DNA from: a phage
Sequence record: PZ386957.1
Direction: 5' to 3' (one strand)
Length of the DNA stretch: 64,000 nucleotides
Shown here piece after piece: positions 35,411-40,783 of this stretch; positions within the stretch are counted from its first letter, which is position 1, and each line of letters starts with the position of its first letter. The notes under the pieces are model-generated. The model was not told the DNA's origin, ran no database searches, and worked only from the letters and a program-made list of their open reading frames with translations. A program made the position numbers and the translations under genes.

Positions 35411-36229
35411 TTACACGCGAGCACCGTAGATCGTGCCAACTTTAGTCCATGTTGGGGCATTACCAGTAACAGCTTTACCAGCAGCACCACCAGGCCACGG
35501 AACACCAGCGCGACCAGTACCATCATACCATGAGTCGTTAGCCTTAGCACCTGCTTGACCAGCGTCACCACCGTTACCAGCATAATATATATTACCGTTA
35601 TACGATCCTCTACCCGGCGCGGTATATGTAGCAGCGGTTGACCCTATTTCCATGTTGGAATATGCACCAGCCGCACCATAAGGACGACCACCACCACCAC
35701 CCATTGACAACCCAATGATCGGATAATATGAGTAATAAGCACCGCCACCGCCACCGCCACCGCCAGCGATGACACCATTATTTGTGATGCGTAGACGTGT
35801 ACCGATACCATTATTGATAGCAGTCCCGCCAGCTTGTCCAGGACCAGTGCTGGAATTAGTACCGCCATCACCACCCTTACCACCACGACCCCAAACATGG
35901 ACACCTGGGTTAATGTTTAATGTAATATACTCATTAGCAAGATCGCTAGGAAAATCGAGACACGGAACACTAGCAGAATGAGAAACAATATCCCCGGTAA
36001 TGGTAATTACTACCGGAGTAGACCCGTGTGATCTTAGATAACTAATCAAAGTATCTTTATTGTAACTATGGTTAGACCCAATACTATAATAAACCTCTTT
36101 AGAACGTCCCACCATCGCACTCATCCAAGCCGGACGACCTAAGCGTACAGCTTCCATTGCGGCACTCATCCACCGTTGGCCTGTTTCATTAACGGCAGAT
36201 GATCCTACCCATCCAGAAGATATTGCCAT
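35411..36229 (-). CDS. glycine-rich protein of unknown function
   Basis: 272 aa; C-terminal half dominated by poly-Gly and GGxGG tracts (GGGGGGGGAYYSYY, MGGGGGRPYG, GNGGDAGQAG); locally GC-rich; hairpin terminator downstream. Confidence 0.6.
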   Translation of the reverse strand: MAISSGWVGSSAVNETGQRWMSAAMEAVRLGRPAWMSAMVGRSKEVYYSIGSNHSYNKDTLISYLRSHGSTPVVITITGDIVSHSASVPCLDFPSDLANEYITLNINPGVHVWGRGGKGGDGGTNSSTGPGQAGGTAINNGIGTRLRITNNGVIAGGGGGGGGAYYSYYPIIGLSMGGGGGRPYGAAGAYSNMEIGSTAATYTAPGRGSYNGNIYYAGNGGDAGQAGAKANDSWYDGTGRAGVPWPGGAAGKAVTGNAPTWTKVGTIYGARV

Positions 36230-37253: not shown

Positions 37254-37558
37254 ATCGTTGCGTCAAGATGCATTAAGTTCCACATAATAGAGTCATAACT
37301 ACCGAAGCCAGAAGTAAAAATTACATCACACTGTCGATAGGTCTTATGAAAATCGGTGGCTGTCTCTGCATCAATCGGCATATCGTCACCGGAAAGCACC
37401 AGACATTTAAGAATCATAACTCTGTTAGCCGTCGGCGCTTGCTTAGTCTTTTCAGCATATTTTTCGATGATCCGTTTTGCCTTTTCTTCTTTGATACGTC
37501 CAGACATAATCCGGTTTTGGTATTGATTCATAATAACTTCAATTACATCATTTTGCAT
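37220..37558 (-). CDS. hypothetical protein
   Basis: 112 aa ORF. Confidence 0.45.
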   Translation of the reverse strand: MQNDVIEVIMNQYQNRIMSGRIKEEKAKRIIEKYAEKTKQAPTANRVMILKCLVLSGDDMPIDAETATDFHKTYRQCDVIFTSGFGSYDSIMWNLMHLDATIWDVLSEEGYN

Positions 37559-37757
37559 TCTTCACGGTCTCCATAATTGTTTTGTAAGCCAGTTTAAGAT
37601 GATCACCGAAAAACTTTGCGGTATTACCTTTCGGATCGCGAAGCATTGTTTCTACGATCTCGTCAGCAGTAACAATTTCTCCTTTCTTTGCGGCATGTTC
37701 TACCATATACTTCAAAGTTTCTTCGGAAGCAAGTGCTGCGGCTACTGGATTAATCAT
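37548..37757 (-). CDS. hypothetical small protein
   Basis: 69 aa; AGGAGA RBS; promoter at 37787-37815. Confidence 0.5.
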   Translation of the reverse strand: MINPVAAALASEETLKYMVEHAAKKGEIVTADEIVETMLRDPKGNTAKFFGDHLKLAYKTIMETVKNAK

Positions 37758-37786
37758 TTTGGTTCTCCTTTGTTGTCGATGTGTGC

Positions 37787-37815
37787 ATTATGCTATACCT
37801 TATTCTTGTTGTCAA
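37787..37815 (-). promoter_or_regulatory. sigma70-type early promoter
   Basis: Minus strand TTGACA-17-CATAAT. Confidence 0.55.
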
Positions 37816-37831
37816 CACCTAAAAACGAAAA

Positions 37832-37854
37832 AGCCACCCTTTCGGATGGCTTTT
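37832..37854 (-). terminator. rho-independent terminator after the 715-aa gene
   Basis: AGCCATCCGAAAGGGTGGCT hairpin followed by a U-tract on the minus strand. Confidence 0.6.
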
Positions 37855-37863
37855 GATTACATT

Positions 37864-40011
37864 TTATTCTCGTCCATTTGTATAGTAGTGTTTGAATCGC
37901 CCATAGCCAGTTTCAATAGACATATCTTTCTGTCGGACAATCGCCCAATAGCCATTGCATGAATCTTGCAAATACAGATCCTTACCTTTTAGGAACTCGT
38001 TAAAGATCGTAATCTGCCAATCATAATAGACGGCATCAGCGAGACTATCCATCCAACCATGTGGATCATCCATCAGTTCGACAAGCTCATCGATAACCCA
38101 ATATGGACACGGGCTAAATTTACCTTTACTAAAATCATTGAACAAGGTAACAAGTTTAACTTCCGGTCGCGGTTCATCCGGCTGCACAGGTCGTTTATTA
38201 ACCACAACCTGTACATATTTCGTATACCCGATGATTTCGCCGGAGTCAAGAGTATCGTTATTGTTCTTATCTGCATAAGCCACAAAACGATAAACACCGG
38301 AATCATTTATTGTTGCATTAGCTTTACGGTAAATCGGCACGCGAGAATCAGCAATAGGTAATTTAACACCAGCTTTGCTAAACTCATAGGTAGGTACATA
38401 ATCAGCCGGAGGCTTCAACATGGTAGCCTCAAGAACAAGCGGTTCACCTTCCGTAATCTGTACCGGATGCGGACCATCAAATTCCATATTAGGCACTACC
38501 TCAACATGGTAGGTAGCGCGTGCTGCAATATCGTAATCGGTATGCGCACTATATGGATCTTTACTCGGACTATCGCGGTATTCATGCGACCAGATACCGT
38601 TATGGTCTCGGTCTGCGGAATCAGTGATCTTATACTCTTTCGCTTCAATAGGCAAATCTGCGACTTTAACATCATTTTTCAGAATTACTAATGAACGCGT
38701 TTGAGTCGGATCACCGCTTGCTGGCGGTTCTGGATCGACGATCTTAATTACAATCGGTTCACCAATCTCAATATTACGATAATCATATTCTTTATCGTAA
38801 ATGTCAAGCATACGGCGGTCATAGAACAAAGGACGTCCGGTCGGTGTTCTCTGCGGATCATCATCACGCGCGGGAGCCACCAACAGTTGAAGTGCTACGC
38901 TATCGTCATATTGCAATTCATTAAGCGTAATGCGGTCATATCCCGGATCACCGTATTTCTTGCTTTGGAGTTGCTTACCGCCTAGCATCCACGTAAAGTA
39001 AACATTATTTGCAAGCATACCATAATGGCGGTTCCATGAGTTATCCGCTGGTAATACTGGCATATCAAAGTTTACTTCCGATCCAGAAGGATAACGAAAT
39101 TCGATTGCTGCAAAGTCATTACGGAAAAATTCGTTTTCCTTAACTTTGACAGTAAATCGGTGTCGCTGCCCTTCAATGAATGATTCACCAGCACCAGGTC
39201 CATTAACCACTTTATAGGAGCGAACGCAAGCTACATATTCACCTGCATCATTTTCGGTAGCATGTTTGGTTGCATAGAGTGTTTTGTTGGTAGACTCATA
39301 AACAAGAGTACCGTCGCCACGCTCTAAGCGATACCTTACAATGGTATGCTCTGCGTCATTAGGCGCATCATCTTCTACCGTGAAATAAGCTGGTGCATAT
39401 TTCTGGACATTGAATACTGCGGGATTTTCCTTAATATCGGCAACAAACGGATAAACAAATTTAACGTCGCCGTGTTCGTCGCTCAATTCCATTCGGTAAT
39501 TACCGGAAAATTCAGGCCATGCAAATTTTGCAATTTTAAATTCACGATGGTCTAATCCCAGATCACCATCAATGGAATCAACGAGGCCATTATTATAATA
39601 CAGGTCAACCGAAATATTAGCCGGAATATTACTACGGAAAACAATTTTTGCTTTAATTTCATCACCAATATCAAAAGACGTTGGAGGATGAACATATTCG
39701 ACAAAGACATTATCGAATAAACTAAAGGTAAAGTTTTCCGTGCCGATATCTACGGATTCGCCAGAAAAATTTTCATCATCTTGCGCATAACCACGAAGGT
39801 TAACAGACCATCCGGTTTTATCCTCTTCTTTCACTGAATCCAATACATAGGAAGGAGTTGCAGTAGTCGCAATGACCTTATTGTCTTTCTTCCACGTAAA
39901 ACCCTTTTTAGGTTTAGTTGGTTCAGGGGATTCCCCAGCAAGGGAACAAGCGAAAGTATGAGGAAGCCAAATGGTAGTATTAACGCTAGTATCTTTATTT
40001 TCTACTGGCAT
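37864..40011 (-). CDS. large protein of unknown function with Ig-like-looking repeats
   Basis: 715 aa; repeated D.G.Y.C/F-type motifs (ENDAGEYVACVRS, INDSGVYRFVAYA) suggestive of Ig-like beta-sandwich domains; no signal peptide or catalytic motif recognised. Confidence 0.65.
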   Translation of the reverse strand: MPVENKDTSVNTTIWLPHTFACSLAGESPEPTKPKKGFTWKKDNKVIATTATPSYVLDSVKEEDKTGWSVNLRGYAQDDENFSGESVDIGTENFTFSLFDNVFVEYVHPPTSFDIGDEIKAKIVFRSNIPANISVDLYYNNGLVDSIDGDLGLDHREFKIAKFAWPEFSGNYRMELSDEHGDVKFVYPFVADIKENPAVFNVQKYAPAYFTVEDDAPNDAEHTIVRYRLERGDGTLVYESTNKTLYATKHATENDAGEYVACVRSYKVVNGPGAGESFIEGQRHRFTVKVKENEFFRNDFAAIEFRYPSGSEVNFDMPVLPADNSWNRHYGMLANNVYFTWMLGGKQLQSKKYGDPGYDRITLNELQYDDSVALQLLVAPARDDDPQRTPTGRPLFYDRRMLDIYDKEYDYRNIEIGEPIVIKIVDPEPPASGDPTQTRSLVILKNDVKVADLPIEAKEYKITDSADRDHNGIWSHEYRDSPSKDPYSAHTDYDIAARATYHVEVVPNMEFDGPHPVQITEGEPLVLEATMLKPPADYVPTYEFSKAGVKLPIADSRVPIYRKANATINDSGVYRFVAYADKNNNDTLDSGEIIGYTKYVQVVVNKRPVQPDEPRPEVKLVTLFNDFSKGKFSPCPYWVIDELVELMDDPHGWMDSLADAVYYDWQITIFNEFLKGKDLYLQDSCNGYWAIVRQKDMSIETGYGRFKHYYTNGRE

Positions 40012-40032
40012 ATTATCCCCTTATTGCTGACA

Positions 40033-40431
40033 CTAAGCCAGCTTAGTGAGTTTATAGATGGTTTTAAAGCATAGAACTTTAATATCGTCTAAAACGCTCT
40101 GTAGAGAGCTATCAACATCATTATAAATCTCACTTGCCATTTGCGCTAATTCCTGCAAATAGGCAACTTCGCTAATCTCCTTTCGGACGACCAACGTCGG
40201 TTGATATCTTCCGGTAATACCGATATTAGTTTCCGTGAAAGTATCAACCAATTCTTGCATTTCAAGATAGAACTCTTCTAGCGCCTTATGTTTTGCGTAA
40301 GACCCCGGACCAGTTACCCCAAAATGCGCAGAATGCATATAAGTAACGCTCATTAGGCATTCACCAATAAAGCGGTCCACATTATTAGCCTTTCCTTCAT
40401 CGGAAGTTTTTCTAAATTCGCTGAATTTCAA
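40033..40431 (-). CDS. hypothetical protein
   Basis: 132 aa ORF. Confidence 0.5.
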   Translation of the reverse strand: MKFSEFRKTSDEGKANNVDRFIGECLMSVTYMHSAHFGVTGPGSYAKHKALEEFYLEMQELVDTFTETNIGITGRYQPTLVVRKEISEVAYLQELAQMASEIYNDVDSSLQSVLDDIKVLCFKTIYKLTKLA

Positions 40432-40721
40432 TTTCGTCGATTCTCCACATTATAAGCAACTACAAATTGCTTCGCAGCATATTCGCCCATCATAAAACAT
40501 TGTCTTGCATCCATACACCTACTACGTGCATATGTTTTCATTAAATGCTCATGAAATTTTTGGCTAGTTTCAACGGATGGTTGGATCTTGCTTATATAGA
40601 CAATCATCGCACCATCAAAATAATCGGTAAAATCACCGACTGGATTATTTTGGTCGGCACTTACACTACCGACTGCCATTAGACAAAATGCTGCGGTTAA
40701 AGTTTTACGAATAAATGACAT
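40428..40721 (-). CDS. small secreted/periplasmic protein
   Basis: 97 aa; N-terminal signal-peptide-like sequence MSFIRKTLTAAFCLMAVGSVSA; TATAAATA-like element upstream. Confidence 0.5.
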   Translation of the reverse strand: MSFIRKTLTAAFCLMAVGSVSADQNNPVGDFTDYFDGAMIVYISKIQPSVETSQKFHEHLMKTYARSRCMDARQCFMMGEYAAKQFVVAYNVENRRN

Positions 40722-40783
40722 AAGTCATTCCCCCAGATTAAAAAAGTTCAAGTATATTTATAATCTAGGGTATATTTTAACCC

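Follow-up and report, generated by a model that had tools for sequence, protein, structure and literature searches.

A probable second, long Hoc-family head-decoration fiber in a phage of the genus Krischvirus

The Hoc proteins of phages T4 and RB49 are acidic, nonessential proteins of 376 and 404 amino acids (aa), respectively, in which a row of three immunoglobulin (Ig)-like domains is followed by an alpha/beta capsid-binding C-terminal domain (C-domain; PDB 5VF3, 8T1X, and 8T9R for T4), and Hoc binds as a monomer at the center of gp23* hexamers (PMC10385173). Within the family, a conserved C-domain is carried on variable Ig strings, with up to 10 Ig domains in some Hocs, and two Hoc-like proteins can be present in one phage, as in Serratia phage Muldoon, which has a 1174-aa Hoc with 10 Ig domains and a second Hoc of 314 aa, and in Enterobacter phage PG7 (PMC10385173). 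Here we describe a gene that encodes a protein of 715 aa on the minus strand (37864..40011) of a 64,000-nucleotide stretch of phage DNA, sequence record PZ386957.1, the whole of which we call the window. The window comes from a Krischvirus (RB49-like “pseudo-T-even” phages, Straboviridae), and its DNA is ~90% identical to that of JK32, Brandy, RB49, Phi1, and JSE. We conclude that the gene probably encodes a second, long head-decoration fiber of the Hoc family, of double length and accessory to the phage.

The gene is a complete open reading frame (ORF) with an ATG start codon, and its product has a mass of 81.5 kDa. Its coordinates and length had been given correctly in an original prediction made from the sequence without database searches, which also described it as the largest nonreplication gene in the region; in fact, no other ORF of the window is as long, the runners-up being 634 and 620 aa. 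The same prediction gave no counterpart in the equivalent T4 region and named clear homology to a characterized protein as an outcome that would speak against it. The equivalent T4 locus is indeed empty of the gene, but such homology came to light in the C-terminal ~90 aa, which are, by sequence comparison, homologous to the capsid-binding domain of Hoc from T4, where it is encoded elsewhere, and from RB49.

This conclusion follows from the agreement of five independent comparisons. PHROG 1149 (“Hoc-like head decoration”) matched aa 514 to 698 at E = 7e-8, with the match lying at the profile's C-terminal end, and a profile of the 715-aa family, compared with all PDB sequences, matched T4 Hoc residues 302 to 361, the pattern common to the two being C..WV.DE...W...YY...Q.S.NGY. 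Alignment of the last 110 residues of the family with seven diverse Hoc C-domains by hhalign gave a probability of 96.6% over 60 columns (E = 5e-10). A hidden Markov model (HMM) of 38 Hoc C-domains, none of them from the 715-aa family, matched just one of 613 six-frame ORFs in the window, the 715-aa ORF (28.3 bits, E = 5e-8); the second-best ORF had an E value of 0.36. Finally, a tblastn search with the last 99 aa found a Slopekvirus Hoc as the best match (35% identity over 57 aa, E = 2e-3), along with weak but consistent matches to hundreds of hoc genes. Pairwise BLASTP of the 715-aa protein against RB49 Hoc was nonsignificant, the C-domain is beyond the reach of BLAST from T4 Hoc (E of about 2), and the alignable stretch is equivalent only to T4 Hoc residues ~302 to 362 of a C-domain that spans ~281 to 376. 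Pfam, in which there is no model for the Hoc C-domain, gave only subthreshold Ig matches for the protein. With the T4 Hoc C-domain as the query, a word-indexed search gave short fragments only; a Hoc alignment, used in the same way, retrieved short C-domain proteins that were of use in building the profile.

The putative capsid-binding domain, of the Hoc alpha/beta type, occupies aa 621 to 709 (37885..38151, minus strand) and is the most conserved part of the protein; it includes C635-P-Y-W-V-I-D-E and Q682-D-S-C-N-G-Y. With T4 and RB49 Hoc it has C..[WY]WV.DE, W, YY, Q-[ED]-S-x-N-G-Y, and ETG in common. AlphaFold2 (AF2) was run twice, and in the second run, which covered aa 601 to 715 with Hoc C-domains added to the alignment, aa 631 to 700 were predicted with a per-residue confidence (pLDDT) of ~85; the order of elements in this model agrees with the published description of the T4 Hoc C-domain (PMC10385173).

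We then compared the domain with T4 Hoc at the contact and structural residues named by Fokine 2023 (PMC10385173). Trp309/Trp310 of T4 Hoc correspond to Tyr637/Trp638 of the 715-aa protein, Asp313 to Asp641, Gln354 to Gln682, Glu355 to Asp683, Ser356 to Ser684, Asn358 to Asn686, Gly359 to Gly687, and Tyr360 to Tyr688. Y637, W638, and D641 are invariant in the family, and helix 1 of the model begins at residue 637. In T4 Hoc, the loop Glu355-Ser356-Arg357-Asn358-Gly359, which lies between strands 3 and 4 and is flanked by Gln354 and Tyr360, is found at the capsomer center (PMC10385173). The corresponding Q682-D683-S684-C685-N686-G687-Y688 is invariant in the 16 sequences of the family, six of its seven positions are kept or conservatively replaced relative to Hoc, and the model likewise places it between two strands. 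Two cysteines of the domain are invariant: Cys635 (38107-38109) aligns with T4 Hoc Cys307, and Cys685 (37936-37938) stands in the place of Arg357.

In acidity the protein also resembles Hoc, its isoelectric point (pI) being 4.84 and that of its C-domain 4.58, compared with 4.57 for RB49 Hoc and ~4 to 5 expected in the Hoc family. The pattern of conservation within the family is uneven along the protein: mean pairwise identity is 63% in the first domain (D1) and 87% in the C-domain, where 64% of the columns are invariant, and the ratio of nonsynonymous to synonymous substitution (dN/dS) is 0.10 overall, 0.23 in D1, and 0.03 in the C-domain. Thus, the 715-aa protein is under purifying selection, and its distal tip evolves fastest and its C-domain slowest.

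The original prediction had likened repeated motifs in the protein to Ig-like beta sandwiches, and structure prediction bears out the Ig-like reading for the N-terminal part. In the full-length AF2 model, computed from an alignment of 16 family members (mean pLDDT, 78), residues 1 to ~605 are all beta and form approximately six sandwich domains of 94 to 113 residues. Beyond them come a Pro/Glu linker that is disordered and, at the C terminus, a region of helix and sheet that was poorly predicted in this full-length run. Foldseek searches of the PDB with the model gave multi-Ig proteins as the top matches (contactin Ig1-6, sidekick, neurofascin, Robo, and titin; E = 3e-20 to 1e-9), and searches of viral models gave the G2248-type homologue and many phage proteins with Ig, FN3, or Big domains. 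At the level of sequence, Pfam Ig_2 scored 22.7 bits on the 715-aa protein, below its cutoff of 27, and across the 16 family members the subthreshold matches were to Ig_2 in 8 and to Ig_3 in 3. Because the Pfam Ig scores lie below threshold, the Ig assignment depends on the predicted fold, and it is at the level of fold that the model supports residues 1 to 606 as a string of approximately six Ig-like beta-sandwich domains.

The repeated D-x-G-x-Y-x-[CF]-x-A motif from which the Ig-like reading had originally been drawn is present in its exact form only once (aa 570 to 578, DSGVYRFVA), and what recurs is a set of degenerate versions on the predicted F strand of all six domains: DKTGWSV, FSGNYRM, DAGEYVA, DDSVALQ, HNGIWSH, and DSGVYRF in D1 to D6, respectively. 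Judged against shuffled sequence, the shorter forms are each more frequent than expected, with D-x-G-x-Y found twice (aa 255 and 570; 0.22 expected, P = 0.02) and G-x-Y-x-[CFAM] three times (P = 0.006). We rejected the idea that D1 to D6 are internal sequence repeats, since pairwise hhalign comparisons of the domains were nonsignificant apart from a weak match between D5 and D6 (E = 8e-4, probability 24%).

All of the domains are encoded on the minus strand. D1 (aa 1 to 100; 39712..40011) is Ig-like, would form the distal tip, and is the most variable; it is the only domain with a near-threshold Pfam Ig_2 match and with matches to the Ig repeats of giant proteins. It is followed by the Ig-like domains D2 (aa 101 to 194; 39430..39711) and D3 (aa 195 to 293; 39133..39429), the latter holding DAGEYVAC, and by the beta sandwich D4 (aa 294 to 406; 38794..39132), which is the largest domain and the one whose boundaries are least certain. 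D5 (aa 407 to 507; 38491..38793) and D6 (aa 508 to 606; 38194..38490) are again Ig-like, and D6, which holds the sole exact DSGVYRFVA, has matches to Hoc-like PHROGs and, in the PDB, to the Ig domains of decoration and tail proteins. The Pro/Glu-rich linker (aa 607 to 620, KRPVQPDEPRPEVK; 38152..38193), modeled with low pLDDT, connects D6 to the C-domain.

Among the 64 related GenBank phage records matched, the gene is intact in five: JK32, Brandy, SSG23, SFHK24, and G2248. All five carriers also have a canonical Hoc of ~404 aa at the usual locus, where RB49 likewise has hoc. The canonical hoc does not lie within the window, and from the five sequenced carriers we infer that the window's own phage has one too. 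Sequence collections yielded 15 cluster representatives of the family, 60 to 98% identical, among 5.8 billion clusters, and two full-length clusters and one 118-aa fragment among 1.84 billion representatives at 50% identity, the remaining matches there being generic Ig repeats or ordinary Hocs. The fragment (P0018) is a metagenomic ORF in which an unrelated N terminus of 55 aa precedes the 63 residues that end the proteins of the 715-aa family; it probably represents one more remnant of a deletion or fusion.

Remnants are all that is left of the gene in ~46 of the 52 phage records, all Krischvirus, that match the 715-aa protein. They lie between rI.-1 and the terminator (RB49, L002 4968-5190; Phi1, L006 ~1400-1700; JSE, L007 ~1470-1800). 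Those of RB49 and JSE consist of codons ~1 to 28, with similarity at the protein level to approximately codon 41, joined to codons 704 to 715, and they have lost the start codon and acquired an in-frame stop; that of Phi1 consists of codons ~1 to 28 and 653 to 715. At least two deletion architectures are therefore represented, with 3′ endpoints at codon 704 or codon 653. A 42-aa ORF, ORF084.1, has been annotated on the Phi1 remnant. Thus, the ancestor of the genus had the gene, which is dispensable, has mostly been lost since, and is under clear purifying selection where it persists.

The 715-aa gene lies downstream of tk, rI (40428-40721, minus strand), and rI.-1 (40033-40431, minus strand), in the same order as in JK32 and in the relative with a 60% identical homologue. 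Only 21 nucleotides (nt) separate the rI.-1 stop codon from the ORF, and this gap holds a Shine-Dalgarno sequence, AAGGGG (40017..40022, minus strand), 6 nt before the ATG. At the other end, 10 nt past the stop codon, is an intrinsic terminator (37819..37854, minus strand) in which a GC-rich hairpin with an 11-bp stem, spanning 37854-37829, is followed by a U run, UUUUUCGUUUUU; the hairpin folds at -16.9 kcal/mol (z = -4.5), and none of 200 shuffled sequences folded equally well. The original prediction was right that a terminator follows the gene, but not that it is the gene's own: the hairpin is also kept in RB49 and other phages from which the gene has been deleted, and it must therefore end the tk-rI-rI.-1 transcription unit rather than being specific to the 715-aa gene. 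Beyond the hairpin, a near-consensus sigma-70 promoter (TTGACA-17-CATAAT) serves the next gene.

A T4-type late promoter box, TATAAATA, is located at 40755..40762 on the minus strand, 33 nt upstream of rI and 750 nt upstream of the 715-aa ORF. Exact copies of this box number only three in the window, and in six related loci, among them those of JK32, RB49, Phi1, JSE, and the relative with 60% identity, it occurs 40 to 41 nt before rI as the sole such box of the locus. We considered and rejected a late promoter directly before the 715-aa ORF, since the candidate TATAAACT, which lies inside rI.-1, has two mismatches to TATAAATA. A scan of positions 37400 to 40600 found no terminator-like site upstream of the hairpin that follows the 715-aa ORF. 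Given the conserved late box before rI and the lack of an intervening terminator, a late rI/rI.-1/715-aa transcript is the simplest reading, and the box is probably its start; late transcription would begin there, pass through rI.-1, and end at the hairpin past the 715-aa ORF. The gene had been labeled “early strand” in the original prediction, and this label is misleading, in that the canonical hoc genes of T4 and RB49 lie on the same “early” strand and a conserved late box stands before rI. Thus, the strand does not count against the gene being structural.

The leader of rI has a further feature. In the segment 40712-40775 (minus strand), TATAAATA is enclosed by a 10-bp hairpin, CCCUAGAUUA...UAAUCUGGGG (-21 kcal/mol, z = -5.6), in which the GGGGG of the rI Shine-Dalgarno sequence is also base paired, and both the box and the flanking hairpin arms are conserved in JK32, RB49, Phi1, JSE, and the distant relative. 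In the T4 genes e, soc, 49, and I-TevI, the ribosome-binding site (RBS) is hidden in the early read-through RNA and exposed in a late RNA that starts inside the loop. The rI-leader hairpin looks like this classic early/late RBS device.

Elsewhere in the block, ~1.6 kb downstream of the 715-aa gene, an ORF of 272 aa (35411-36229, minus strand) is glycine rich, with GGGGGGG runs, and matches the gp38-type tail-fiber adhesin annotated at the equivalent position in JK32 and RB49. This otherwise early-type block therefore also includes a late gene for a virion protein.

Taken as a second Hoc-family decoration fiber, the 715-aa protein would dock as a monomer through its C-domain on the center of expanded gp23* hexamers, like Hoc, and the ~155 sites there would be shared with, or contested by, the standard 404-aa Hoc of the phage. 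The outcome would be a mixed coat in which fibers of ~300 Å (a length scaled from the T4 Hoc figure) reach beyond a Hoc layer of ~180 Å, and in which the variable distal Ig-like domains may, in line with proposals for Hoc, attach to surface glycans or to other ligands or affect how virions disperse. We found no capsid difference between the two groups of phages: gp23 is 93 to 95% identical between carriers and noncarriers, and its Hoc-binding loop (T4 Gly326-Arg344) is identical in the carriers JK32 and G2248 and the noncarrier RB49. Nearly all of the 42 amino acid differences among RB49, JK32, and G2248 gp23 fall within residues 132 to 256, which we infer to be the surface insertion domain.

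Several observations weigh against a Hoc-like fiber docked in this way. The V-H-P-[IL]-P-x-R motif of Hoc, with its highly conserved Tyr293, His295, and Arg300, the last of which forms a salt bridge with gp23 Asp336 (PMC10385173), is absent from the protein; the segment in its place reads VTLFNDFSKG, with no His-Pro and no Arg, and positions 1 to 18 of the Hoc HMM were left unaligned, the N-terminal part of the Hoc C-domain not being recognizable. Arg357 of the Hoc ESRNG loop is represented by Cys685 in the family (by Lys in P0016, the most distant member), so that the Arg357-Asp313 salt bridge of T4 Hoc (PMC10385173) cannot form, even though Asp641 is kept. Foldseek comparison of the C-domain model with the PDB gave nothing below an E value of 0.48 and did not retrieve T4 Hoc. 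Carriers already have a canonical Hoc for the same site, and no late box lies immediately upstream of the ORF, the nearest being that before rI. The usual position of hoc, which lies between inh and gene 24.3 near the head genes and is typical of Hoc but not defining, is not that of the 715-aa gene. The gene is annotated “hypothetical protein” in all five GenBank copies, and the papers on JK32 and SSG23 make no mention of it. With the V-H-P-x-P-x-R motif and Arg357 missing, the capsid site and the binding mode proposed for the protein are putative; as far as its sequence goes, it is a divergent member of the Hoc family.

These losses favor the reading that the protein is a Hoc-derived virion component whose remodeled C-domain binds away from the hexamer center, without competing with canonical Hoc, for example on gp24 pentamers, on another capsid or neck surface, or on Hoc itself. 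The T4 equivalents of the lost motif, with Arg300, and of the replaced Arg357 make or stabilize gp23 contacts (PMC10385173), an intact canonical Hoc always coexists with the protein, and its C-domain, as the most strongly constrained part, should bind something conserved. We nevertheless consider a site of this kind unlikely, because the protein keeps the residues that lie at the capsomer center in T4 (Gln354, Tyr360, the [E/D]-S-x-N-G loop, and the two aromatic residues of helix 1), the gp23 loop to which Hoc binds does not differ in carriers, and there are precedents for two Hoc-like proteins in one phage (PMC10385173). It is similarly doubtful, and we suggest it only tentatively, that the altered C-domain, with no V-H-P-x-P-x-R, Cys for Arg357, and the Cys635/Cys685 pair, gives a binding mode or site unlike that of canonical Hoc and provides carriers with a two-tier coat. 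If so, short Hoc and long fibers would occupy separate sites or have regulated occupancy, and the repeated loss of the gene would be a niche-dependent trade-off, for example, between gut mucus and laboratory or sewage hosts.

Two other explanations do without a virion fiber. The protein might act inside the cell or be released, as an Ig-like host-surface, exclusion, or antidefense factor in which the Hoc-like C-domain is a mere relic, as its position in an early/accessory block (tk, rI, rI.-1, and small ORFs) distant from hoc and the head-gene locus, the missing late box directly upstream, and its dispensability and loss in most relatives might suggest. We regard this as improbable, given that the sequence has neither a signal peptide nor a hydrophobic segment, that a relic would not be expected to be the most conserved domain with a dN/dS of 0.03, that canonical Hoc is just as dispensable and lies on the same strand, that a conserved late promoter stands at the head of the operon, and that a late adhesin gene, g38, is in the same block. 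The abundance of remnant-only records, with their differing deletion endpoints, could alternatively mean that the ORF is decaying or nonfunctional and heading for loss, as in RB49. The odds of this are very slight: the 16 full-length cluster representatives are intact and free of frameshifts despite identities of 60 to 98%, synteny is kept even in the relative that is only 60% identical, and a dN/dS of ~0.1 with synonymous sites near saturation largely refutes it. A second, long Hoc-family decoration fiber is therefore the reading that we favor.

Compared with the described systems, the protein resembles T4 and RB49 Hoc in its domain order and homologous C-domain, its acidity, its nonessential nature, its place on the early-gene strand, and the combination of a variable tip with a conserved base. 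It differs in having six Ig-like domains rather than three, in its position downstream of rI.-1 and not in the interval from inh to gene 24.3, in its lack of V-H-P-x-P-x-R and Cys for Arg357, and in accompanying canonical Hoc rather than replacing it. With Muldoon and PG7, it shares the presence of two proteins with a Hoc capsid-binding domain in one phage and a variable number of Ig-like domains, but Krischvirus is another genus, the family is tiny, its C-domain has diverged, and the second copy lies away from the hoc locus. The nearest C-domain by tblastn is that of the Slopekvirus Hocs (Klebsiella phages KLB15, Matisse, and others; 26% identity over aa 503 to 688, E = 1e-5), which are shorter, are encoded at the canonical hoc locus beside inh and uvsW, and keep both the VHPIPWR motif and the ESRNG/DSRNG loop. 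Ig-like decoration proteins of other phages, such as T5 pb10, and the eukaryotic multi-Ig adhesion proteins contactin, sidekick, and titin resemble the N-terminal 600 residues in fold and in their beads-on-a-string layout, but at 9 to 14% identity and with other anchoring domains, so that ancestry is implied no further than the Ig-like fold.

We rejected an identity as a tail fiber or whisker, since the “whisker protein” and “tail protein” labels among the matches belong to misannotated Hoc genes of the inh-hoc locus or to Ig-only matches. One such gene, in Klebsiella phage vB_KM5a1_KLB15 (L005 3593-4817), is labeled “whisker protein” and is a Hoc, as its position between inh and other genes of the hoc locus shows; it is followed by a 91-aa ORF made solely of a Hoc C-domain (VHPIPWR...ESRNG). 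We also noted a sizeable class of proteins of 90 to 180 aa (P0065-P0090) with an N-terminal Hoc capsid-binding domain and an extension of ~70 aa, examples being those of Yersinia phage JC221, Escherichia phage EcS1, and Klebsiella phage Metamorpho. Such “mini-Hocs” point to reuse of the anchor domain as a module for display.

Long Hocs and phages with two Hocs are already known (PMC10385173), and the 715-aa gene adds to this kind rather than revealing a new type of system. We found no description of the gene in the literature searched, which did not cover the 650-sequence supplement of Fokine 2023. The finding is of moderate interest for its unusual locus, its altered set of capsid-binding motifs, and the pseudogene in the reference phage RB49, and it offers a proposed function for a gene labeled “hypothetical protein” in every GenBank copy. 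A seven-module fiber with a Hoc-type anchor might be of interest for phage display. RB49, whose Hoc was crystallized, retains what is left of another Hoc-like gene, longer than its hoc and still intact in some of its wild relatives. Carriers and noncarriers, which are otherwise ~90% identical and have the same gp23 Hoc loop, thus form a natural pair in which the effects of long Ig-like capsid fibers could be tested, including those on adsorption, mucus adherence, virion dispersion, immunogenicity, and the sharing of sites by two Hoc-type proteins.

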